Part shown: piece by piece, positions 1-33,097 of the stretch | Layout of the letters: every line of letters begins with the position of its first letter | Numbering within the stretch: the stretch's first letter is position 1 | IMG/VR virus record: IMGVR_UViG_3300037423_002659 | Location: 1-37,468 of that record | DNA from: a virus | Lineage: Duplodnaviria; Caudoviricetes | Length of the DNA stretch: 37,468 nt | Strand: one strand, 5' to 3' | Program-made: the position numbers and the translations under genes | The notes under the pieces: model-generated | What the model saw: the letters and a program-made list of their open reading frames with translations, nothing else | The model's database searches: none | What the model was told of the DNA's origin: nothing

Positions 1-1197
1 CTACTGAGCATCTGTCACCCCGAACGTCTTGTTCATGAGTGCGGCTTTGCTCGCTGCGCCTGGCTTGCAATACACACGCTGGTAGACCGCAAGGGTCATA
101 TCCAGAATCTCACATGCGACCATGGGAGGCCAGCCTTCCTCGCCAGTAATCGTCGCAAACGTGTGCCTCAGGTCATGGAAGCGCGCTTCGTATTTCGCCG
201 CCTCGGAAATGCCAGCGATGCGCTTCACCTTCCGCCACACCTTGTCGAAGATTTGGCTCGAGATATGGTTCGCCGGATCGGATGGCATCGGAAAGACCCA
301 TTCGGATTCGAGGTGTGACCCCAGGAAGAGCTGCTCATTCATGGCCTCGATGACCTCAGGGACCATGGGAACCTCGCGCCACTTGTGGTTCTTAAACGAC
401 CAGACGTGCATGACCTTCTTTTTGAAATCGACTTTCTCGCGTCTTAGCGCCAGCACTTCCTTCTTTCGCATCCCGCATCTGAGGCCAAGCAAGACCCCAA
501 GCCTTGCCCTTGAGACCAGGATCCGGCGCTGAAGAGTGATCTTCTCGGGTGGATAGAATGACTGGTATGCGACAAGCATTGCTGACTGCTCTTCAGGTGA
601 ATACACCCGGCCTGGCTTCTTGAATTTCTTGTTCTTTCGAATGATCTCGGGAAGGTCCGAGAGTTTTGAAAGGTCCGGCTCTTCGCGAATGTATTTGTGC
701 GCGAAAAGGTGGCGGCTGATCATCCCGATATAACGAATGGTTTGCTCTGGAAGTCTCTTCGGATGCGTTTCGAGATACCACGACTTAAAAGCGAGGATAC
801 CTTCGGTTGTCCACTGGCTTGCTGTTCGATCGCCCCAGAACGGCTCAATTCCATGCCGCCAGTTTTTATGGTACACCGCCTGGGTGCTCTTTTCCTTGCC
901 TGGAAATTTCTCTTCCAGCAGTTCAGGCCAAACATCTCTGATCAGCGGATTGGTGACGCCTTTCTTTATCCTCTTGATCGCCGTCTCTGACTTGCCGGAA
1001 CGGCGCTTTTCAAGTTCCACTTCGACGAATGAAATCGCCTTGGAAATCTGAGTCAGACCCGTCGGAATTTTGATGGTCTCGCCGTTTACAGTCCGCCGGT
1101 ACGTGATCTTTTTGTTGATCGGATTGACGTAGTAATGCGGATGCTTCTCGAGCCTGACAAGATCTTGAAACGTTGGCTTCCGTTCCGGCTTGGACAT
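1..1197 (-). CDS. int: Tyrosine recombinase / phage integrase
   Basis: GMRKKEVLAL (catalytic R), HDLRHTFAT (HxxR), C-terminal Tyr in RVY; 398 aa; adjacent to an excisionase-like gene. Confidence 0.92.
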   Translation of the reverse strand: MSKPERKPTFQDLVRLEKHPHYYVNPINKKITYRRTVNGETIKIPTGLTQISKAISFVEVELEKRRSGKSETAIKRIKKGVTNPLIRDVWPELLEEKFPGKEKSTQAVYHKNWRHGIEPFWGDRTASQWTTEGILAFKSWYLETHPKRLPEQTIRYIGMISRHLFAHKYIREEPDLSKLSDLPEIIRKNKKFKKPGRVYSPEEQSAMLVAYQSFYPPEKITLQRRILVSRARLGVLLGLRCGMRKKEVLALRREKVDFKKKVMHVWSFKNHKWREVPMVPEVIEAMNEQLFLGSHLESEWVFPMPSDPANHISSQIFDKVWRKVKRIAGISEAAKYEARFHDLRHTFATITGEEGWPPMVACEILDMTLAVYQRVYCKPGAASKAALMNKTFGVTDAQ

Positions 1198-1688: not shown

Positions 1689-1775
1689 CCGCCTCAAGTG
1701 AACCACTCCGACCGATGGGATTCGAACCCATGGTTTCCTCGGCTAGTACGCAAGCCGAAGTGATTCATTTCAAGC
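1689..1775 (-). ncRNA. Long-stem structured RNA motif, copy 1
   Basis: GCTTGAAA-TGAATCACTTCGG...TCGGAGTGGTTCA-CTTGAGGCGG; encloses a T-loop hairpin ATGGG-TTCGAAT-CCCAT. Confidence 0.65.
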
Positions 1776-1856
1776 CAGCCTACCGAGCCCCATGCTCGAC
1801 AGACAGACGCGCCAGCTTCACTCAGGAGGCCCCGCCGAAACGAAGCTCGCGGTTCT

Positions 1857-2147
1857 TTAGTAGCCGTCGCCGTTGCCGTCGCCGTCGCCGTAGCCGTTGC
1901 CGTTGCCGTAGCCGTTGCCGTAGCCATCGCCATCGCCGTAGCCGTAGCCGTTGCCGTAGCCGTTGCCGTCGCTGTCGCCGTTGGCGTAGCCGTTGCCGTC
2001 GCCGTCGCCGTAGCCGTTGCCGTAGCCGTTGCCGTAGCCGTTGCCGTAGCCGTTGCCGTAGCCGTTGCCGTCGCCGTTGCCATAGCCGTTGCCGTGCACG
2101 GCCTGACATTTATCTCCCAGTGAGCCGATCAGAGATACTTTTCCCAT
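1857..2147 (-). CDS. Gly-rich (GNGY/GDG repeat) small phage protein
   Basis: GNGYGNG repeats; start overlaps the end of the upstream gene, an arrangement common for this pair in phages. Confidence 0.7.
   Translation of the reverse strand: MGKVSLIGSLGDKCQAVHGNGYGNGDGNGYGNGYGNGYGNGYGNGYGDGDGNGYANGDSDGNGYGNGYGYGDGDGYGNGYGNGNGYGDGDGNGDGY
1862..2095. repeat. Tandem 6/12-nt repeat (CCGTTG/CCGTAG/CCGTCG)
   Basis: Directly visible; it encodes the Gly-rich repeat. Confidence 0.9.
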
Positions 2148-6684: not shown

Positions 6685-7911
6685 TCAGGCCTGGATATTG
6701 ATCGCGCCAACTTGCTCAAGGCGTTTGAACATTGCGGCGACACCGCATTGATCATCGATCGCAGCGGGATCAAACACGTGATCACGGATATACTTGCCTC
6801 GACGATGATGATTCGTCGTCGACCAAAGGTACGGCGAATTGCAGACCTCGCCATTCACATCGAGCTTGCCGTAGTAGCCCATACCGTTGAACTTCTCAGC
6901 GAAGTACAACACTTCCTCCAGCGACCAGCTTGCGCGCCCTGAGAGGCCATCGTATGCGAGGGCATCGAGCGCGCCATCTTCCCAGGTCTTGAAAGGGCCG
7001 CGGCCGGCCGGCACGTTTTTCGTCGGCTTCGATAGCGAATCGCCGTTTCCGAGGTAGGCATCCCAACGGAAGCTCGCCTCCATCGCATGAATCGCGCCGA
7101 TCAGAATCCAAGGTACGCCTGTCTTTGCTTGCATCGCCTCATAGCGCGAGCGCCCTTCGAGAAGTCGCTTCACGTACCAGTCGACGCGAGACAAGTTCTC
7201 GAGCTTTGCTGTCGAGTAAAGGTACGAGTAGCGCGGACGAAGCTCGCGGAATGTCTTCTTTCCGAAGTCAGGCAGCGCGCCTGGCGCCTTGTCCATTTTT
7301 AGGACGAGCAGAGCCGATGCATTGGCTGTTTGCTCCGTCTTCGTTGGATCTTTCGGCCAGCGAAAAATCACGCCCGCAATCGGAAAAGCGGTTTCATTTA
7401 CTTCGTCGCTCTGATTGCCGCCAACGCAGAAGACTTTGTCGCCGATGATGCGCGCGGCGAAGGTGACGTGATAGCCGCTCGCTGCAGCCTTCGACGGCAC
7501 GCAAGCGATACATCCAGGACGAAACGACGTGGCAACACCGAAGGATCTCCAGTTTGCGGCCCACGCCGGATCCTTGGGAAGATCCTCGCGCGCGATACCA
7601 GCATCGAGAAGCTTGCTGAAAGCATACACGCCACACCATGCGGTCGAGTCGTGCTGAAGGCTTGGCTCAAGCCCCGCGCGCTTTATCATCGCGACGATCG
7701 CCGGGTTGTCGCCTGAGCCTTGAACCTCCTTCATGCGGCCGATGTCGGCCTTAGCGAGCTCGAGCCATTTCGGCTCAGCGGGCGCAGGCGTCGCGGGTTG
7801 ATTCACATCAGGAGCAGGCGCTGGACCTGATTCAGATGGAGTTTTCGACTCGGCCTGGCTCTTCTTCAAGATTGAATCGAGCCAAGCGAGAAAGCGTTTG
7901 AAAATGTTCAT
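6685..7911 (-). CDS. Endolysin: TIGR02594/NlpC-P60-like peptidase plus lysozyme-like domain
   Basis: TAWCG...YHVTF...GGNQSD (Cys-His peptidase); IHAMEAS...LGNGD...EKFNGMGY...SPYLWS (COG5526-like lysozyme). Confidence 0.85.
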   Translation of the reverse strand: MNIFKRFLAWLDSILKKSQAESKTPSESGPAPAPDVNQPATPAPAEPKWLELAKADIGRMKEVQGSGDNPAIVAMIKRAGLEPSLQHDSTAWCGVYAFSKLLDAGIAREDLPKDPAWAANWRSFGVATSFRPGCIACVPSKAAASGYHVTFAARIIGDKVFCVGGNQSDEVNETAFPIAGVIFRWPKDPTKTEQTANASALLVLKMDKAPGALPDFGKKTFRELRPRYSYLYSTAKLENLSRVDWYVKRLLEGRSRYEAMQAKTGVPWILIGAIHAMEASFRWDAYLGNGDSLSKPTKNVPAGRGPFKTWEDGALDALAYDGLSGRASWSLEEVLYFAEKFNGMGYYGKLDVNGEVCNSPYLWSTTNHHRRGKYIRDHVFDPAAIDDQCGVAAMFKRLEQVGAINIQA

Positions 7912-7914
7912 TGA

Positions 7915-8286
7915 TTACCTCTGTTGGAGTTCGATCGCACTGTCGATGGTTTGAACCGACCGCTCCCAGTTCGAAATCGATCGGTCGCAGTCTTTCGTGC
8001 GCTTGCACATTTTGATGATGAACGCCTTGATCTCAGCCCACGAAGCGGCTGGCATGTGGACCATCAAAGGTCGCAATGCCCACCAGGTGTATTTTTCCTT
8101 CGTGTACGGATCGGTAAACGGATGTTCGTCGTCCACGTCGTACTCGGTGCTCGAGATCGTGTGGACGCAGTGTCCGCGATCGATATCGAGCTCCACGCAA
8201 AGCGGAACGTCGGGAGCACTCGCGCATCCGCTAAGAAGACAGACGAACGAAAGTACGAAAAGCGTCGATAACAGCTTTCTCTGCAT
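7915..8286 (-). CDS. Lipoprotein in lysis cassette (spanin-like candidate)
   Basis: Lipobox LLSGC; overlaps the upstream gene; next to the endolysin. Confidence 0.65.
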   Translation of the reverse strand: MQRKLLSTLFVLSFVCLLSGCASAPDVPLCVELDIDRGHCVHTISSTEYDVDDEHPFTDPYTKEKYTWWALRPLMVHMPAASWAEIKAFIIKMCKRTKDCDRSISNWERSVQTIDSAIELQQR

Positions 8287-8566
8287 CAGCCTTTTGCTCC
8301 GGTTTGGCGTTCTGGTTTTTTAGGGCCGCTTCGACGAACGCTCTCCCCTGCTTCGAAACGCGAAAGTCCGTGTAGAGGAAGAACATCCGCATTTCGACAT
8401 CGGCGATCAGTTCACCCAGGACGTAATTCACGAGAAGGCTTGTGAGTGGGTTGAAGAACGGAAGACGAAGAAGCGGGAGCTTGGCCACGAGCTTCTCCAT
8501 GAGCAGCCGGTGACCAAGCTCCTTGAATGTCTTCGCGATGAGATCAACGTACTCGTCGCGAGTCAT
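8231..8566 (-). CDS. Hypothetical protein, lysis region
   Basis: Tightly packed ORF with an amphipathic/hydrophobic segment. Confidence 0.65.
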   Translation of the reverse strand: MTRDEYVDLIAKTFKELGHRLLMEKLVAKLPLLRLPFFNPLTSLLVNYVLGELIADVEMRMFFLYTDFRVSKQGRAFVEAALKNQNAKPEQKADAEKAVIDAFRTFVRLSS

Positions 8567-8569
8567 TGA

Positions 8570-8815
8570 TCACTTGCCGTCGCCGTCAAGATCGAGCTTC
8601 TCGATCAGCGGAATCACCATGGGATCAAGCTGATCGTAAAAGGGCGCGACTACGTCGTCGATCTTGGTCTCGGATACCACCGCTGACTCTTTTGCCCACT
8701 GCTTAAACGCCTGGTACACCTTTGCGCCAGCATGCTCCAGCGCCTCTTCAGCGATCGGGAGGCCTGCGGCCTTCAGTTTGAGACCGAGGTCCTTCAGGTC
8801 ATACGCCTTTTCCAT
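8570..8815 (-). CDS. Hypothetical protein, lysis region
   Basis: RBS AGGAGAG, 81 aa, tightly packed. Confidence 0.7.
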   Translation of the reverse strand: MEKAYDLKDLGLKLKAAGLPIAEEALEHAGAKVYQAFKQWAKESAVVSETKIDDVVAPFYDQLDPMVIPLIEKLDLDGDGK

Positions 8816-8999
8816 CGTTTCTCTCCTTTTGGATGAGCCGCACGATCACCGCGACGGCTATTGTGGCGAAGATTGAGAGAATCGAGGAAGCACCGCCCGG
8901 ACGCTTTCGCCCGAGCCACGCTTCAAAGAGAAGAAATGGAAGCAGCATCAGAGCGTGAAACCACAAAGGCGCGTTCTGAACGCACTGAAGCTGATCCAA
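8799..8999 (-). CDS. Holin-like small membrane protein
   Basis: Two hydrophobic segments, charged C-terminus, TTG start after GAGGAG; first gene of the lysis cassette. Confidence 0.55.
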   Translation of the reverse strand: MDQLQCVQNAPLWFHALMLLPFLLFEAWLGRKRPGGASSILSIFATIAVAVIVRLIQKERNDGKGV

Positions 9000-9082
9000 G
9001 GATGCTCCTCGACCGAGGAGCCGGGATATTGCGGGTGGTTCAAGATTATGAGCCGGTCAACTCGTGGTCAACCGGCCCTAGA

Positions 9083-12674: not shown

Positions 12675-13937
12675 TTATCCCCTCACCGAAAAACCTTGTT
12701 TTTTCCTGTCAGCAGTCGATCGGAGAATGTCCTGAATCGCATTCCACTTTCGTTCTTCCGCATCCGCAGTGTTCCCGTACTTCGTATCCTCTTGGCTGTA
12801 GAAGTCATTGAGTGCAGCACGATTGGCATCGTAGGAGCTTTGCGCTTGTGCCAACAAATTGCCCAATAGGCCTTGTCGCCCAAAATCTCGAGCCACATCC
12901 CAAGCGCCGCCGCCAACCGAGACTGGCGAGGAGTTGGCGATATCGGCCCAAGTTGCGTTGCTTGCGTTTAGACCCATGCCGTTCGGATTAATGAAGTCGT
13001 CACCAATTCCGGTGAGCCCAAGAATCTGCCTCCCGCTTTGCGAATTGAATTCATTTTGATAAGCCGATCGCGCCTGCGACTCCTGTCTTCCAATATTCGA
13101 CTCGAGTTCGTTTCCTGTGTTCCCGAGATAGTCGCGAAGTGAATTTTGATTCACTCGGTACTGCTTCTCAGCCTCAGACAGAGCGTTTGTTGTGTCAGCG
13201 ACTACTTGATCGCGATAATCACCAAGACCAGCGTACTGCTTCAGAAGAGCATCGCGAGTGTTCGCGAGATTTTCGTTGCTCACGTCGAGCTGATTTTGCA
13301 GCGCTCTGCCACCGCTGGTGAGCTGGCCCCCGGCTTTTTCCTGATAGAGGTTTCCCATCATGCGATCGAATGCATCGCGATTCTGGAGATTCTGACCATA
13401 GTTCTGCGTGTCAGCAGAAAGACTGTAGTCGAATGCGCGCGGCCCAGAGTACTGGCCCTCAAGAGCGTTTTGAAACTTTCCGATTGAATCGTTATATGCC
13501 TGCGTTTGAGCTCCGCCGTAGGTGTAGGCTTGCCCTGCCTGATCAAGCCAGGAGTTCATGTTCGACTTCACGTCATTGACACTCTCGGCGGCTTTTTGAG
13601 CCTCAGATTTCGTCGCATCCGCTTGAGACTGGACCTTCGACTTCTCCTTATCGAACTGAGAGCCGACTTTGTCCTGCAGCATCTGCGCTGAGCCCGTGTC
13701 GTCTTTGTTCGCCTGCATGTATGCCTGAATGTTCGTCCAGCCGCCAGTTCCACCTTTTCCGATCCCGGCCGTCGATACAGGTGATCCTATACCCGACGAC
13801 CCATTAATTCCGGATGCGACATAACCGGCATCGCTCGTGCCGCCCGGCTGAGCGAGTGCACTCGCCGCGGCCGGCTGCTGGTTCGCAGCTGGCTGATCCT
13901 GTAGAAGCTTATCCTCATCATCGAGAATGTATGCCAT
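12675..13937 (-). CDS. Putative virion protein
   Basis: 420 aa Gln/Asn/Gly-rich ORF within the structural operon. Confidence 0.65.
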   Translation of the reverse strand: MAYILDDEDKLLQDQPAANQQPAAASALAQPGGTSDAGYVASGINGSSGIGSPVSTAGIGKGGTGGWTNIQAYMQANKDDTGSAQMLQDKVGSQFDKEKSKVQSQADATKSEAQKAAESVNDVKSNMNSWLDQAGQAYTYGGAQTQAYNDSIGKFQNALEGQYSGPRAFDYSLSADTQNYGQNLQNRDAFDRMMGNLYQEKAGGQLTSGGRALQNQLDVSNENLANTRDALLKQYAGLGDYRDQVVADTTNALSEAEKQYRVNQNSLRDYLGNTGNELESNIGRQESQARSAYQNEFNSQSGRQILGLTGIGDDFINPNGMGLNASNATWADIANSSPVSVGGGAWDVARDFGRQGLLGNLLAQAQSSYDANRAALNDFYSQEDTKYGNTADAEERKWNAIQDILRSTADRKKQGFSVRG

Positions 13938-14340: not shown

Positions 14341-16835
14341 CGCCCGATCCTCTCTGAGCCAGAGTTGAAGGCAAACGAGCATCCGGCGACGACAAGCTTC
14401 TTTCTTGCCTCAGTGTGTTTCACGCCAAGCGTGAGTCGCGTGCAATACTGCTTGTTCATGGGCGTGTAGGTCGGATATCCGACAGGATCATTTGAACCGC
14501 CCCACGGACTCGAACCCCATGCGGCTCCCCATCCCGACTGCGGCTCTTCAAGATCAACTTCCTCACGCTCGGAATCAAAGTTCGTCCTAAAGGTCATCGT
14601 GAGACGAGATGCTGAGTTATCGCCCATAGTGTCGTCGCTTAGAATTGCCGCCATCCAGACCTGCTTGAGCACGTCGGGTGCACCGGCCGTCCATGGCTGC
14701 CATTCAATATCCATATTCACACCAGGGTACAGCGTTGCCGCTCCCGTGGTCCACGTGCCGGGAATGTTTGAATCGACAGTCGCGCGCCAACCTACAGTGA
14801 GCGGCGTGATCTCGGTGATCACAAGATCCGTGGTGCCCTGAGAGATAACCCATCCAACCAGCGGCGTGACAACCGTCGCAATCGTGAAATCGAGTGTGTC
14901 GGTGCCGAGAGCCGATATCGTGATCGAGTACTCGGGATCGGCGAAGTCTGAGTCGTCAAACGCTTTACGTTCGATGTACAGATTCGTATCCGAAGGCTTC
15001 GCGAAATACATTTTATCGACGCTTGCTTCAACTATTCCCGCAGCGAATCCATAGGTGTGCGGAACCCACGTGCGCGTGATGTAGTTGTAGACAAACGTCT
15101 GCGAAGCAACTGTTCCTGACGCACTCGAAATCGTCGAGAGGTAGTACATCCGTTCCGACTCGTACGCGATGGCCGAGGTGTAATCCTTGAGGCTCGAGTT
15201 TGTCAGAAGCGGCGTGAGAAGCTGCTCGATATCGTGCGAGACAACTTGAATGCCACTCTCGGTGATTGCCACGACACCTTGGTTTGAGAGCATGAACACC
15301 TGGTTTGCAAGCACCACCGCAGAATTCGGCGCCCGGCAATACACCGTCGTATCAACCGGGACTACCGAGAAGCTCGACGGAGTTTCACCGGTAATTCGGT
15401 AAACACCTTCTTCTTTGATCACGATGGCCGACTCGCGAAGAGCCAGAATCCGGAGGATCTCCTTGTTTGAAGGCCCCACAGGGAGCTTGTTCAAAATAGG
15501 GACATGCTCAGGCTGCTGAGACTTCGCGTAATAAACCATGTTCTTTTCGACCTGATTGGAGCTCGTCGATTTTGTGTTCGTCGACGGACTCACCGGAGGT
15601 GCAGGAAAGAACATCCCGGAGATGGCTGTGTCAGACGCTTGTAGTGTGAACGCCGATGCGCCGACACCTTTCTCCTCGATCATGATTTGACCAGGGAGCT
15701 CCTCAGGTCCCGTGAGGTAGTACGCGTAGACACTCGTGTTCGAGGCATAGCGGTTGATCACGCGTACAAATGATCGCGCAGTTGCGTCGATGTCGAATGC
15801 CGCAACGCCAGTCGCCGAAACAGCTGCCTGAGGACTTCCACCACCGGAGATGATCTCAGATGCGCCGAAGTTATAGGTCACTCCACCCAACGTGATGGTC
15901 TTGCCGCTGAGGCTGCCCGTTCCGACGAGCGTTACGAAGAGCCGCTGCTTCGTCTGGGTGTTCGCATAGAGCATGTAATTGGTCTTGTAGAGCGCAATGT
16001 CCTTACAAAGCGGCGGACGCTCGTTTGCTTGCGCGATTCCTTCCTGCGACGGGCTCGTGTAGAGCGTAGCACCTCTTAAAGTATCGACAATCGAGTCAGT
16101 GAAGGTCACATAACCAGTCGAAATGTCAGACGAGGTGAGTTCGTACTGATAAACAAGCCCCATTTCATCGCCGGAGTCGTCCGAACTCGTGCCGGAGACC
16201 TGTTCCGTGCGGAAAAACTGAATCACATCGCCTGCGGCGGCTTCGCTTGGCAGGTATTCCGTCAAAATCACGTTTCTCGCGCCACCAGCCGAGTTCGGCA
16301 CCCATAAACGCTGGCTTGGATATCCCGTGATCACGTTGTTTTGCGCATCGGTGCGCACAATCACGCTTCGATAGGCGCACTGGTAGCCGTTTGCGAGAAA
16401 TCCGGTCGCTCCCGTGAGCGTGTAGCTCGGATCGAGAGCTCGAGGAGCTCCGGCAAGGCGCCCAGCCGTGCCTGCGATGTCGGAGAAGACCTTCACACCG
16501 AGCGATGTCGTGGCATAGAGGTTTGAAAACGCCTCCACCCCTCGCATCGTCTGCCCGGAAGGTGCCGTGTATGAACCGGAGTAGCTCGAAAATGAACCAG
16601 CTCCGTCGTCATATGCGAGCACTGATCCTCGATTCACGAGAACGCGATTCTGATACGTGAGAAGCGCGAGCGCCTGGCTCGCGAGCGCAGAATAAACCTT
16701 ATGACCGCGGCGATTTTCGAGAATATTCTCTCGACGATTTACGCAGTCGTTGGCCTTCAGAAGCGCGCCTGGCGCTACTGTGAGCGGATTGTACTGGGCT
16801 ACAAGCCCTAAGCACTTCGTGATTCTGTCTTGCAC
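14337..16835 (-). CDS. Tail nozzle / tubular protein B-like (P22 gp10-like)
   Basis: 832 aa beta-rich protein following the adaptor-like gene; size and position typical. Confidence 0.7.
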   Translation of the reverse strand: MQDRITKCLGLVAQYNPLTVAPGALLKANDCVNRRENILENRRGHKVYSALASQALALLTYQNRVLVNRGSVLAYDDGAGSFSSYSGSYTAPSGQTMRGVEAFSNLYATTSLGVKVFSDIAGTAGRLAGAPRALDPSYTLTGATGFLANGYQCAYRSVIVRTDAQNNVITGYPSQRLWVPNSAGGARNVILTEYLPSEAAAGDVIQFFRTEQVSGTSSDDSGDEMGLVYQYELTSSDISTGYVTFTDSIVDTLRGATLYTSPSQEGIAQANERPPLCKDIALYKTNYMLYANTQTKQRLFVTLVGTGSLSGKTITLGGVTYNFGASEIISGGGSPQAAVSATGVAAFDIDATARSFVRVINRYASNTSVYAYYLTGPEELPGQIMIEEKGVGASAFTLQASDTAISGMFFPAPPVSPSTNTKSTSSNQVEKNMVYYAKSQQPEHVPILNKLPVGPSNKEILRILALRESAIVIKEEGVYRITGETPSSFSVVPVDTTVYCRAPNSAVVLANQVFMLSNQGVVAITESGIQVVSHDIEQLLTPLLTNSSLKDYTSAIAYESERMYYLSTISSASGTVASQTFVYNYITRTWVPHTYGFAAGIVEASVDKMYFAKPSDTNLYIERKAFDDSDFADPEYSITISALGTDTLDFTIATVVTPLVGWVISQGTTDLVITEITPLTVGWRATVDSNIPGTWTTGAATLYPGVNMDIEWQPWTAGAPDVLKQVWMAAILSDDTMGDNSASRLTMTFRTNFDSEREEVDLEEPQSGWGAAWGSSPWGGSNDPVGYPTYTPMNKQYCTRLTLGVKHTEARKKLVVAGCSFAFNSGSERIGR

Positions 16836-16886
16836 GTCTCACGAGCCTAGGAGCCGGGAACAAATCAAGCGGGTAAAAAAATCTTA

Positions 16887-17834
16887 CTATCTCTGAAACG
16901 CACTTAGGAGTCCATTTCGCGCGGAGACTCTCATCGGTGAACTCTGAACACGGTTCTTCACCATTGCGATCGCCTCAGCGCGTGCCTCTTTGAGCTCGAC
17001 CTTTGCCGCTGCGAGCTTGTTCATGTCTCCAAGAGCTGCAACGAGCCTCACGCCCATCATCTGATCAAGCACGGGATGGAACTCTTCAGGTATCATCGGG
17101 ATGTTCGAGTATCCAGCCGGACACACGTAGTCACCGATCTGAGGCTCAACTGTGCCCGCCTCGTTTGAAATCGCAGATGTCGCGACTTGGATCTGGGTCG
17201 TTGAGATCGCCGTGAGGGAGACCTGTTCCGCCCAGAGAAGGAATGGACCCGTCGCACTCACGATGTCGACCTTCGACCCCACGGACAGCGGGAAATCAAG
17301 CCCCGTGTCGGTCAGGTCCGTGTCGATCGTGATCGTAGTGGTTCCTCCAGCACTCGAGATATCGGTGATCGCAGCGCAGTTTGTCGTCGAGATGAGTCGG
17401 TTCGGCTTCCGGTAGTACTGGAAGAGCAATGATCCCGTTGCCACTTCCGGCGCAGGGCAAATCACAACCTCATCACCCGCAAAATAAAACTTCGAGGGAG
17501 TTCCGGTTGAACCAGCAAACTCATGGCGTCGGCTCGGCTCGATGCGATCTAGCGGATGCTCGGTGCCTGATGAATCGACATAAAAAAGCGCGACGAGAGT
17601 GCTCCCGATCGCTCGTGGTGGGATCGAATAGTGATCCACCCCTGCTTCAAGCGTCGACGACCTCGAGGTTAGGAAGAAATCCTCCCGAACTTTCATGAGG
17701 TCAGAGACGACCTTCAGCAGGAGCTCGTCATTGGCGATCGTAATCAGATCCGACGTCTGAAACGTGTTCTGAGAGATCGGCGCAAGTGTCCTGAGCTTTG
17801 CTCCGGCAATCCGGTCCTCAATGAAGATCGACAT
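16887..17834 (-). CDS. Head-tail adaptor / tubular protein A-like
   Basis: DLITIANDEL N-terminal helix, GTPSKFYF, IPEEFHPVL motifs seen in podovirus adaptors. Confidence 0.7.
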   Translation of the reverse strand: MSIFIEDRIAGAKLRTLAPISQNTFQTSDLITIANDELLLKVVSDLMKVREDFFLTSRSSTLEAGVDHYSIPPRAIGSTLVALFYVDSSGTEHPLDRIEPSRRHEFAGSTGTPSKFYFAGDEVVICPAPEVATGSLLFQYYRKPNRLISTTNCAAITDISSAGGTTTITIDTDLTDTGLDFPLSVGSKVDIVSATGPFLLWAEQVSLTAISTTQIQVATSAISNEAGTVEPQIGDYVCPAGYSNIPMIPEEFHPVLDQMMGVRLVAALGDMNKLAAAKVELKEARAEAIAMVKNRVQSSPMRVSARNGLLSAFQR

Positions 17835-18174: not shown

Positions 18175-18450
18175 TCAGTTCCCCTTCCTATCTGGTTCAA
18201 GGCGGCCTCGGATATAACTCACGTCGACCGCAATTCGGTTCATGTTGTCCTGCATATTGTCGAGACGCTTCTCGACCGAGAAGACCCTTGCATCCACCTG
18301 AGCGAATCGCTCATTCGCATCGGCCTTGCTCTGAAAGTAAGTCGTCAGCCAGAGCGTTAACGACGCGATCGTGAAGCAAGCGGCGACCGTCTCGGCGAGC
18401 GAGAGCCGCCATTTCAACAGTAGATTCGGCTCCTCAGAGACCTTTTGCAT
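18175..18450 (-). CDS. Membrane-anchored coiled-coil protein
   Basis: One TM helix plus coiled coil; TAATG coupling to the upstream small ORF. Confidence 0.65.
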   Translation of the reverse strand: MQKVSEEPNLLLKWRLSLAETVAACFTIASLTLWLTTYFQSKADANERFAQVDARVFSVEKRLDNMQDNMNRIAVDVSYIRGRLEPDRKGN

Positions 18451-18623
18451 TAATGGCTCCGCATGTACCAAGGGATATCAGCGCACTGGAATAGGCCCTT
18501 ACCGAGAGGCTCGCATCCTTCTTGAATATTCTGCTTCACCCGGTATCTCGCACAGCCAGAAAGAGCGGCACAAAAATAGAGCGCCGCTACCAAGAAGAGA
18601 AGGATAACGATTTGAGCTTTCAT
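18450..18623 (-). CDS. 57-aa lipoprotein (absent from the ORF track)
   Basis: MKAQIVILLFLVAALYFCAALSGCARYRVKQNIQEGCEPLGKGLFQCADIPWYMRSH; lipobox LSGC; RBS GAGGTGAGG; fills the gap exactly. Confidence 0.75.
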   Translation of the reverse strand: MKAQIVILLFLVAALYFCAALSGCARYRVKQNIQEGCEPLGKGLFQCADIPWYMRSH

Positions 18624-21538: not shown

Positions 21539-21562
21539 AAATAAGACTCCTCATATGAGCCA

Positions 21563-21595
21563 GGGAGCGGGTGCCCCTTTCAGGGCCCCGCTCTC
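21563..21595 (-). terminator. GC-rich hairpin after the capsid gene (no U-tract; attenuator or stabiliser)
   Basis: GAGAGCGGGGCCC-TGAAA-GGGGCACCCGCTCCC. Confidence 0.4.
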
Positions 21596-22839: not shown

Positions 22840-22938
22840 TGAAAACTCCTGAGTGAATCCTCCGGAGCCGGCTGAAGGCGTTGTAAATCTTGAAGCTCGA
22901 TACGAGTGCGGGATCGCCTCGAGCGATTAATTTTTTTG

Positions 22939-24021: not shown

Positions 24022-24162
24022 TCATTTCTCAAATTTTTGCCGTTCTTCAGCGCGACAGCATTCAGCGCAAATTGAATACGTGATTGTCTTGTTTCGCGGA
24101 CGGCGGCCCTGAAAGATCGTTTTCCCACACTCTCTGCAGACGACCTTCCCGTGCTTTTTCAC
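24022..24162 (-). CDS. 46-aa zinc-ribbon protein (absent from the ORF track)
   Basis: GTG start; MKKHGKVVCRECGKTIFQGRRPRNKTITYSICAECCRAEERQKFEK with CxxC...CxxC; fills the portal-scaffold gap. Confidence 0.6.
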   Translation of the reverse strand: MKKHGKVVCRECGKTIFQGRRPRNKTITYSICAECCRAEERQKFEK

Positions 24163-28181: not shown

Positions 28182-28589
28182 TCATGTTTTACTCAGGCCT
28201 TCGACGCCGCGGGCTTCACGATCATTGGTTCGCTTCTCAAGCCACAACAGGCACTCGTCGAGCTTCGTGATCGCCATCGAGTTCTCGCGACACGGAAACT
28301 TCGCGTTCAGTCCTTCAAGGATGACCTTCGTAGCAGCGATGATCGTGTTCACCTGGCATCCATTCACACCTACCTCTTTGACAGGGCCATTTTGGATGGT
28401 GAACGAGAGCGAGTTTTTATCGTTGCGAACATAGATGAAATGATTGGGGCGGATGTCCTTTTCGAACCACTGCCAATCCATCGCGCCCGACTCGTTGAAC
28501 TTGTCAGGGAACTTCTCACGAAGTTCATCCATCACCACGACGTTAAATCCGTCGATCTTCTCTACCCCTTTGAGTGTCTCAAGTGCCAT
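28182..28589 (-). CDS. tad1: Tad1-like anti-defence sponge protein
   Basis: IQNGPVKE..NG...FPCRENSMAITKLDECLLWLEKRTNDREARGVEG matches the Tad1 C-terminal pattern as recalled (FQKG...[31 protein letters not shown]). Confidence 0.75.
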   Translation of the reverse strand: MALETLKGVEKIDGFNVVVMDELREKFPDKFNESGAMDWQWFEKDIRPNHFIYVRNDKNSLSFTIQNGPVKEVGVNGCQVNTIIAATKVILEGLNAKFPCRENSMAITKLDECLLWLEKRTNDREARGVEGLSKT

Positions 28590-31783: not shown

Positions 31784-32268
31784 TTCTCTCCCCTTGCTAT
31801 GCGAATCACTTCGATGAGTTTTTCAGCTGAAAGATCGAGTTTCAGCGGTGCCGAATCTTCACCGCCGCCTTCGAGAGCCATCTGATGCTTGTCTCGCCAC
31901 TCATCGGGCTTCCGATTCTTGAGCCAGAAGATCGCTGCTGTAACATCAGGCGGATATTGCTTCATCGTCTCGTGAGTGATGATCATGCCTTCGTGACAGA
32001 ACACCTTCTCTTCACGATGGGAGTAGCCGACCGCGCGGGAAAAGAGAGAAGCTTCGACCAAATCGTCTGCGACCTGCTTCGATTCGTTTAGGGCCCACAT
32101 AAAGTCGGGATGCTTGCCCTTCCAGTTGCGAAGCGTGTTGACATGGATGCCAATAATCTCGGCGATTTGTTCCTCAGTCTTGCCTGCAGAGCCGAGCTCA
32201 AGAATTTTTTCCTTCACTGCCACATTAAATTTGCTGGGCCGGCCGATCGGATTTCGCTCTTCGCTCAT
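31780..32268 (-). CDS. terS: Terminase small subunit
   Basis: GRPSKF, HTH, SLFSRAVGY, PPDVTAAIFWLKNRKPDEWRDK. Confidence 0.88.
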   Translation of the reverse strand: MSEERNPIGRPSKFNVAVKEKILELGSAGKTEEQIAEIIGIHVNTLRNWKGKHPDFMWALNESKQVADDLVEASLFSRAVGYSHREEKVFCHEGMIITHETMKQYPPDVTAAIFWLKNRKPDEWRDKHQMALEGGGEDSAPLKLDLSAEKLIEVIRIARGEK

Positions 32269-32498
32269 CGTCCGATTCCTCTCGTGAGAGCGAGGCCGTC
32301 AATGCGATCCTTGAGCGCCAGGATCTTCTTCTCGAGCTCGACGATCTGCTGAGTGCGCTCACGCTCAATGAAATGAAGGAACCCGAAGAGAGCGCACGCA
32401 ACAGCAAAGGCAAGAGCCGTGGGATAGCTCGGAGCGAGCGCCAGGGCGAGAGCCGCTCCGCAGATCACGGCGGCAGAGAAGTGAAACTTGAATTCCAT
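32265..32498 (-). CDS. Small membrane protein (from MEFKFH)
   Basis: RBS GGAGG; two hydrophobic segments plus coiled coil. Confidence 0.65.
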   Translation of the reverse strand: MEFKFHFSAAVICGAALALALAPSYPTALAFAVACALFGFLHFIERERTQQIVELEKKILALKDRIDGLALTRGIGR

Positions 32499-32514: not shown

Positions 32515-32590
32515 TGGCTGCGGGACCTGGGCTCGAACCAGGAACCTTCTGAGTCAAAGTCAGCTGATCTACCAATTGATCTATCCCGCA
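32515..32590 (-). tRNA. tRNA-Gln(UUG)
   Basis: TGCGGGA/TCCCGCA acceptor, D-arm GATC, loop CT-TTG-AC, CCTGG-TTCGAGC-CCAGG, G-CCA end encoded. Confidence 0.92.
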
Positions 32591-32597
32591 TCTAACG

Positions 32598-32767
32598 CGC
32601 ACCAGGAGGGACGAGCGAACTCCCGGCTCCCCTATGGGGTGATGTTCGCCCTTCCCTTGAGCTACGACTTCAGCTCCGGAGCCCGCACTCCGCCCTTGGG
32701 CTCATTCGACCGGAGCCAATTCGGAAGCTGAAGGCTTCTCTTGCTCTTCTCTCATGCTTCTGGTGCG
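32598..32767 (-). ncRNA. Putative multi-stem small RNA at the head of the late operon
   Basis: Closing stem CGCACCAG/CTGGTGCG; inner stems CTTCAGCT/AGCTGAAG, GAGCCC/GGGCTC, AGGGA/TCCCT, GGGCGAAC/GTTCGCTC; seeds complementary to late-gene leaders. Confidence 0.65.
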
Positions 32768-32818
32768 TAGAGACTTCTCGCTCTTGAAAGTGGCAATTGA
32801 GCGTGCTGAAATCGCCTC

Positions 32819-33019
32819 ATGCAAAACGACATTCCTCGAATAAAGAAAGCCGTGCTCACGCAAAAGCTGAACATCGCCGTCGATGAGTCGACGAAGTCCG
32901 ACTACGACACCTTGAAGTCACGGCATGGGATTGATGTAGCTGAGTGTGTGCGCTCGGCCGTGCGCCGAGAGATCAAACGCCTGAAGGCGATCGTCGCTGA
33001 AGAGAATCAGTCCGCTTGA
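32819..33019 (+). CDS. Ribbon-helix-helix-like small DNA-binding protein
   Basis: KLNIAVD beta strand followed by two helices; own terminator downstream. Confidence 0.6.
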   Translation: MQNDIPRIKKAVLTQKLNIAVDESTKSDYDTLKSRHGIDVAECVRSAVRREIKRLKAIVAEENQSA

Positions 33020-33069
33020 CGACCACGCTCGAGAGATCGAGCATTGAACCTGTCCGGAGAGTCGCCTAG

Positions 33070-33097
33070 GGCCGCAGCATGGGGTTGCGGCCTTTTT
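33070..33097 (+). terminator. Rho-independent terminator
   Basis: GGCCGCAGC-ATGGG-GTTGCGGCC-TTTTT. Confidence 0.75.

Follow-up and report, generated by a model that had tools for sequence, protein, structure and literature searches.

A sequence tag shared by four late-gene leaders of a provirus and its possible link to the hairpin at a holin-like gene

Is the hairpin over the ribosome-binding site (RBS) of a holin-like gene in a tailed-phage provirus a private brake on lysis, or one instance of a control that also reaches other late genes? The window, i.e., the whole stretch of 37,468 nucleotides that was analyzed (IMG/VR record IMGVR_UViG_3300037423_002659), is a provirus recorded as complete in IMG/VR. 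It carries an integrase gene and a repressor-like gene besides those for replication, terminase, portal, capsid, virion, and lysis. Almost all of its genes are located on the minus strand, two tRNA genes are present, and the G+C content is 55%. Soil and rhizosphere sequencing runs contain DNA that is near-identical to the window. As relatives of the window proteins are found in a Halobacteriovoraceae genome and in further genomes of the same phylum, the host of the prophage is likely a member of the Bdellovibrionota. The best INPHARED matches of the capsid protein are <28% identical, and a search of viral contigs with this protein found no locus.

Several other features of the window are recorded here. 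A tandem repeat with a 6-nt unit (1812-2137) lies within the ORF at 1694-2083(-). Between 33627 and 34453, three adjacent genes have duplicated gene-start segments of 29-66 nt in common. The ORF at 28182-28589(-) possibly encodes an anti-defence protein, as it weakly resembles the Acb2/Tad1 hairpin domain (E 2.9e-4, which does not reach the cut-off).

A hairpin at the start of a holin-like gene

Hairpins that bury the Shine–Dalgarno (SD) sequence of a holin gene are textbook knowledge. In the window, the arms GCTCCTC (9021-9015) and GAGGAGC (9010-9004) are separated by the loop GGTC and enclose the SD GAGGAG, which lies 5 nt ahead of the start codon TTG 8999 (Table 1). The preliminary description of this DNA had quoted this minus-strand reading together with a perfect 7-bp stem over the SD; the reading and the stem are exact in the sequence, and the burial of the SD is predicted by folding. 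Perfect stems of at least 7 bp occur 13 times in the window and 10-26 times in ten shuffles, which corresponds to background. The opening energy of the holin SD ranks 10th among 53 automatically chosen starts, some of which are wrongly chosen, and closure is equally strong at 16 of 72 internal SD-like sites. When the whole ribosome footprint (-15 to +13) is calculated for 52 starts, those of the holin and capsid genes are more closed than all others.

The anti-SD arm and the five nucleotides in front of it together form site B, which consists of TCCCGGCTCC plus TC. These five nucleotides (9026-9022) had been regarded as an exposed toehold, which is not confirmed: their unpaired probability across six folding windows runs from 0.02-0.04 up to 0.43-0.96, and they are nearly fully paired in one context and mostly paired in two more. 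Farther upstream, a hairpin that directly follows the stop codon of the 541-aa gene lacks a U tract and carries a second, partial copy of the tag described below (CCGGCTCA) in its 3′ arm. In some folds, the TTG is paired with the upstream stop region, which hints at a coupling to the upstream gene; clearing this region changes the footprint by at most 1.5 kcal/mol in the opening direction. The 9-kb gap contains a sigma-70-like pair (15-nt spacer) that did not receive a promoter call, and an Rfam search of the 9-kb leader gave no match.

The hairpin as such is absent from 15 homologue leaders. Thirteen of them (two loci are identical) fold to only -3.5 to -7.7 kcal/mol, and the other two form a different, imperfect stem inside the upstream gene. 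The exact hairpin pattern is found at six loci in IMG/VR, none with a recognizable holin-like frame. Contigs of four DNA sequencing runs contain no variants where they cover the locus, the hairpin being covered by one run that is possibly the source of the record.

The frame that opens at TTG 8999 overlaps the next gene and encodes 66 aa. A full-library search retrieved homologues with a length of 63-69 aa, and an iterated search led to an 11-row family with invariant Cys, Glu, Trp, Gly, and Ser residues. The Cys is located within the first six residues in all 11 aligned members and corresponds to Cys6 of the TTG frame. The TTG also has the best SD of three candidate starts (-8.1 compared with -1.7 and -3.5 kcal/mol). 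The Cys alignment and the SD thus back the earlier assignment of TTG 8999 as the real start. The database gene call starts at Met18 of the TTG frame. ATG 8948 was excluded as start, because the homologues extend back to the Cys at residue 6 and because this ATG is not preceded by an SD.

An AlphaFold2 model of the ORF predicts helices at residues 12-31 and 39-61 (mean pLDDT only 63.5). Class II holins are described as proteins of 65-95 residues with two transmembrane helices (PMC3359269); the ORF agrees with this in its 66 aa, its two predicted helices, and its place in the lysis cassette. At many of the 15 homologue loci, the neighbors are cell-wall-enzyme-like or small membrane proteins, as judged by eye. 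One of seven family members matches a holin profile (PHROG 920, E 0.01), and a Pfam search of the family members found no holin. The holin-like identity that had been proposed is therefore well supported by position and shape (two-helix model, lysis-type neighbors) and weakly by profile. When the ORF alone served as query, no locus was retrieved from viral, metagenome, or genome contigs; searches of viral contigs with alignment A2 and P0002 likewise gave no locus, and all Atlas matches were below 0.8. With the 11 rows, a small family of holin-like proteins that was previously uncatalogued is now defined. The conserved 81-aa protein of the cassette was found at 41 loci (L001-L010 and L017-L047), often in lysis-type cassettes with varying upstream neighbors.

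Table 1. Positions of the features in the window
Feature	Position	Strand	Remarks
408-aa endolysin-like ORF	6685..7911	-	PHROG 1259, tail-lysozyme region, E 1.7e-17
123-aa lipoprotein-like ORF	7915..8286	-	weak Rz-like spanin match, E 9e-4
111-aa cassette protein	8231..8566	-	
81-aa conserved lysis-cassette protein	8570..8815	-	no family
66-aa holin-like ORF	8799..8999	-	TTG start, two predicted helices, basic loop, charged tail
Intragenic stem-loop	8969..8985	-	about +15..+31 of the holin-like gene; predicted fold
7-bp hairpin over SD of holin-like gene	9004..9021	-	GCTCCTC / GGTC / GAGGAGC; sequence, predicted fold
Site B	9015..9026	-	5 nt outside stem (proposed toehold) + 7-nt anti-SD arm
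Site A (ACCCGCAA)	9029..9036	-	complementary to seed A; single-stranded in most predicted folds
Upstream 12-bp hairpin	9050..9078	-	two G-U pairs; z -4.6
Tag copy, leader of 832-aa virion gene	16849..16860	-	5′ arm of predicted long stem around start (GTG 16835)
57-aa lipoprotein-like ORF	18450-18623	-	fills apparent late gap
Variant tag (TCCCTGGCTCA), leader of 178-aa gene after capsid gene	21556..21566	-	5-bp stem over part of SD
Tag copy, major-capsid leader	22864..22872	-	5′ arm of long predicted rod over SD + AUG
Capsid-leader site A (CCCGCACTC)	22904..22912	-	9-nt complement of seed A; mostly in hairpin loop
46-aa ORF with two CxxC pairs	24022-24162	-	fills apparent late gap
tRNA-Gln(UUG)	32515..32590	-	
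Candidate ~180-nt structured RNA	32591..32772	-	predicted; late-operon head, ends paired, directly 5′ of tRNA-Gln
Seed B (GGGGAGCCGGGA)	32621..32632	-	partly unpaired; opening cost 7.6 kcal/mol
Seed A (GAGTGCGGG)	32682..32690	-	partly in 13-nt loop
Head gap	32818-32591	-	non-coding late gap
Divergent 66-aa ribbon-helix-helix-like ORF	32819..33019	+	

A tag in the late leaders and its complement in the head gap

Once two apparent gaps that are filled by ORFs are removed, the late region contains five non-coding gaps of at least 30 nt. One is the head gap, and the other four are the leaders of the capsid, the 178-aa, the 832-aa virion, and the holin-like genes. All four leaders carry the tag CCGGCUCC or a variant of it 22-32 nt ahead of the start codon (ATG 22839, ATG 21538, GTG 16835, and TTG 8999, respectively), three times exactly and once with an extra base, and CCCGC precedes it. 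The predicted folds place the tag in the 5′ strand of a stem that covers the SD or encloses the start. CCGGCTCC is found five times in the window, four times in gaps, which make up 5.4% of the window. Since the tag is present in all four late leaders and its complement in the fifth gap, it marks late genes and is not a lysis-only gate. Of the interpretation in the preliminary description, the locked RBS and the holin-like identity stand, whereas the proposed gating of lysis timing is too narrow, as capsid and virion genes have the tag in common with the holin-like gene.

The tag is probably real. Its sharing among the four leaders was reached by none of 3000 leader shuffles and, with the anti-SD core held fixed, by 2 of 200,000; the restriction to four leaders was chosen after the pattern was seen. 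In a blind test, genes were called automatically and each of the 16 gaps served as query. This test recovered the 32.6-kb seed against three leaders (8-mer), a result that 0/200 shuffles reached, and against two leaders (10-mer), which 1/200 reached; the 7-mer gave 12/200. The loosest test (16 gaps, either orientation) gave 14, 46, and 5 per 1000 shuffles for 8-, 9-, and 10-mers, compared with 67, 163, and 13 per 1000 native samples. The five late gaps hold seven sense copies (two of them inside the head region) versus two antisense copies of the tag, and 0.72 sense copies are expected for this motif, which was chosen after the fact.

The role of the reversed copy in the head gap is less certain. 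Positions 9026-9015 pair with 32632-32621(-) in 12 of 12 positions with one G-U pair, exactly as had been proposed for seed B, and this is the only such partner besides the opposite strand of the site itself. On its own, the 12-nt match is no better than chance: within the 210-nt region at 32.6 kb, four minus-strand partners compare with 3.7 ± 2.0 in 200 shuffles, and one or more 12-nt partners exist for 97% of 178 native tiles. Given the tag, the head-region complement is reached by 8 of 3000 shuffles, a chance that is estimated to rise to about 0.05 if any gap on either strand is allowed. The head region carries complements of both the tag and CCCGC, and its second seed (GCGGG) matches all four leaders over 5-9 nt. 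Its one-seed score is the best among 1265 overlapping tiles on both strands; on the two-seed score, it is surpassed by a plus-strand tile at 19.3 kb. When pairing is weighted by accessibility, the region ranks second of 203 tiles for the holin leader, and the holin leader ranks second of 48 leaders for the candidate 32.6-kb RNA. A coding tile at 31.0 kb pairs more strongly with the holin leader (-18.3 versus -12.4).

The 32.6-kb region folds with a z of -1.6, has no Rfam match beyond chance, and contains no U-tailed terminator on the minus strand. DNA searches with it gave chance matches only, both in phages and in four records. A decayed tRNA was rejected as its identity, since ARAGORN calls it only at a cut-off that gives 300 calls in the window and Rfam is negative. 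The divergent ribbon-helix-helix-like ORF next to the gap is followed by a plus-strand terminator (33068-33094), and a Foldseek search with its model found no match. This ORF lacks an SD and has a sigma-70-like pair just upstream (by eye; region 32790-33094(+)), which suggests a leaderless mRNA. On the other side of the tRNA-Gln gene, a 77-aa hydrophobic ORF without family match (32265-32498(-)) precedes the small terminase gene. The pattern GAGGCGAT..GCAC lies close to where the head and capsid gaps begin, at 32803-32818(-) and 22906-22920(-), and GAGGCGAT is also present at 16976. This pattern, rather than the tag, could be a late-promoter element; as it was derived from those same two sites, it is a lead only.

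Six relatives with the same architecture (capsid proteins 33-41% identical) were searched for a tag-plus-complement pair, and none was found, apart from G308 with its long repeats. The blind seed test on 25 other contigs was clearly significant for G308 only and marginal for L002 (9/200) and L004 (7/200); the gene calls in G597 were wrong in this test because in-frame TAG codons are read through there. In G308 (C28, about 10200-35000; L087, L088), repeats of 100-200 nt in both orientations fill many late gaps, and a pattern search with this repeat found nothing. The G597 prophage (C4, about 28000-54000; L095, L096) has many in-frame TAG codons in its terminase, portal, capsid, and virion genes as well as a tRNA-like gene with a CUA anticodon, and is apparently amber-recoded. 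It also contains sense-only late-gap repeats of 12-19 nt (joined positions 12718, 18153, and 26643). Sense-only late-gap repeats, 12-19 nt as well, are present in G687 (L097/L098, joined positions 14363, 14472, 20846, and 28760). The repeats of the two prophages differ from each other, are located at the operon head, the capsid leader, and the ejection-gene leader, and look like late promoters.

How the tag might be read

The tentatively preferred reading is that the predicted ~180-nt RNA ahead of the tRNA-Gln pairs with the tags and opens the late leaders. Strand displacement by the candidate 32.6-kb RNA gains support because the same seed matches three further late leaders. The late operon would be transcribed from the head gap, and 5′ processing of the tRNA-Gln would free the candidate RNA, which may then accumulate late. 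It would dock at site A and at the five free bases of site B and subsequently displace the SD strand. The capsid gene, the two virion genes, and the holin-like gene, all four of which lack translational coupling to an upstream gene, would be switched on together, so that holin synthesis, and hence lysis time, would be one output among four. In its full form, as a multi-target toehold switch in which a tRNA-leader-derived RNA with two seeds opens all four genes with no protein activator, the proposal is somewhat more doubtful. If true, the build-up of the RNA would be a master late switch and lysis clock.

The calculated energies fit this reading to different degrees. Net binding (helix plus both opening costs) is -6.9 kcal/mol for the holin leader and -8.6 kcal/mol for the 832-aa gene. 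The capsid leader gives +3.6 kcal/mol with site B alone and -6.6 kcal/mol with site A, and site A of the 178-aa gene gives +5.7 kcal/mol. At the two best sites, the departures from an exact complement are G-U pairs. With site B blocked, the cost of opening the holin SD falls from 11.0-12.3 kcal/mol to 5.6-8.0 kcal/mol across six contexts. For the holin footprint, a block of the arm gains only 2-8 kcal/mol, with 3.5 kcal/mol in the symmetric context of greatest width. The same block lowers the capsid footprint from 22.4 to 9.6 kcal/mol (12.8 freed) and frees that of the 832-aa gene by 0.8 kcal/mol. Given these uneven energies and gains, the modeled case for the RNA is strongest for capsid and holin and uneven elsewhere. 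In cofolding, the hairpin stayed closed in four of four models, which are nested and do not represent loop-loop pairing.

A DNA-level reading, unlikely and yet deserving weight, follows phage T4 gene e. The tag would be a DNA element in the 5′ arm, i.e., part of a late promoter or a regulator site. Read-through RNA would fold shut, and late transcripts that begin a few bases past it would lack the arm and be translated; the copy at 32.6 kb would be a reversed DNA site or chance. The T4 genes e (lysozyme), soc, 49, and I-TevI operate in this way, with the RBS in a helix and the late promoter in its 5′ strand (PMC3014915). A transcript whose 5′ end lies 4-7 nt past the tag lowers the footprint from 22.1 to 11.5-14.6 kcal/mol for the holin and from 22.4 to about 9 kcal/mol for the capsid, so that the calculated opening is at least equal to that by RNA blocking. 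The excess of sense copies in the late gaps, the sense-only repeats without antisense copy in two of the six relatives (G597, G687), and the ribbon-helix-helix-like gene that adjoins the head gap also favor a DNA element. The tag itself fits a promoter poorly: it is 80-90% G+C, has no conserved A+T-rich melting part, unlike the repeats of the relatives, and its spacing to CCCGC varies from 1 to about 40 nt. It is anchored to the starts, whereas the repeats of the relatives are located at gap starts, about 190 nt upstream in the capsid leaders, and their promoter role is itself a proposal. A sigma-70 search gave no match here. A search for a T7-type polymerase in the window and four relatives was negative, which is a weak point as the control was also unmatched.

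Less probable still is damping in cis only, as in lambda S. The hairpin, the weak TTG, and the intragenic stem would set a low constant rate of holin synthesis, the unpaired upstream stretch would be a ribosome standby site, and the tag would reflect a common origin of the leaders or anti-SD composition. The offsets of the two stem-loops (-22..-5 and about +15..+31) are near those of lambda S (-21..-7 and +31..47), the single 12-nt match is at chance level, duplicated gene starts occur elsewhere in the genome (33.6-34.4 kb), and the pairing of the TTG with the upstream stop in some folds hints at coupling. Damping does not explain why the leaders have 4-6 bases in common on the 5′ side of the anti-SD core (2/200,000) or why the head gap holds the complement. 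There is no dual-start motif, a lock of 11-12 kcal/mol is strong for simple damping, and clearing the upstream stop region hardly opens the footprint (≤1.5 kcal/mol).

It is quite improbable that the tag is recognized on the mRNA by an RNA-binding protein of the phage that also melts the stems. The model for such a reader is Com of phage Mu, which binds beside the inhibitory structure of mom and melts it (PMC6483171). The tag is anchored to the starts, which fits an RNA-level reader, and the 46-aa ORF with two CxxC pairs would be a candidate. This ORF has no Com-family match and only weak zinc-finger matches (best E in Pfam 0.015, in PHROGs 0.008), the predicted folds have the tag in base pairs, and the complement in the head gap is left unexplained.

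The absence of any function, i.e., a chance stem in a 55% G+C genome together with a chance repeat, would agree with background stem counts, 8-mer sharing in 67 of 1000 random native stretches, and the lack of conservation among the homologue leaders and relatives examined, but is the least probable reading, since the tag stands in four of four late leaders with its distance to the start nearly constant, the blind test gave 0/200, and the holin and capsid starts are the most closed of 52.

Comparison with known systems

In lambda S, one stem-loop upstream covers the SD (-21..-7) and another lies inside the gene (+31..47) (10.1101/2025.05.14.654169), and such stem-loops at holin starts alter the lysis time (PMC3359269). 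The holin-like gene resembles lambda S in its SD stem-loop at nearly equal offsets and in its intragenic stem-loop, both predicted. It differs by the absence of a Met-Lys-Met dual start, the next in-frame starts being codons 12 and 18 without an SD, and by its TTG start, its two predicted helices, and an arm tag that is common to non-lysis genes.

As in the T4 gene e type, several late genes, one of them lytic, have a predicted RBS helix with shared sequence in the 5′ strand. Unlike there, no promoter is recognized, the tag is G+C-rich, and a reversed copy is present in the candidate RNA. The likeness to Com and mom of phage Mu consists in a late gene locked by (predicted) mRNA structure and a proposed phage opener; a Com homologue was not found in the window.

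The cluster K mycobacteriophages contain the SAS, an asymmetric short repeat near start codons, mostly behind large gaps. Its copies run in one orientation, apart from a single reversed one that is not tied to a gene start (PMC3203893). The tag is likewise an asymmetric start-associated repeat with a lone reversed copy. The SAS is a 13-bp sequence that overlaps the SD of 11-19 non-structural genes; the tag measures 8-10 nt and lies in the anti-SD arm of four late genes. The two sequences are unrelated, and the tag is not a SAS member. The provirus might nevertheless serve as a small model for start-associated repeats with a single reversed copy as in these mycobacteriophages.

The closest RNA precedents are lambda PreS, which activates dnaN by exposing the RBS (10.1101/2024.10.31.621285), and StxS, a late-leader RNA that acts in trans on rpoS (PMC7547250). 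As in both, the predicted effect of pairing ahead of the start is an exposed RBS, and the seed is complementary to the inhibitory arm; as for StxS, the RNA, a candidate here, comes from the late-operon head. The activated targets of PreS and StxS are host genes, whereas here they would be four late genes of the phage itself. A literature search, mostly of open-access text, found no phage RNA that activates its own structural and lysis genes by such pairing.

What would surprise specialists is that all uncoupled late genes have a common short tag in their locking arms and that a single candidate RNA holds the complement. Under the T4-like alternative too, the tag would indicate late control signals in phages, probably of Bdellovibrionota, that have received little study. 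If the RNA model is true, the provirus would hold a compact natural counterpart of engineered toehold switches.
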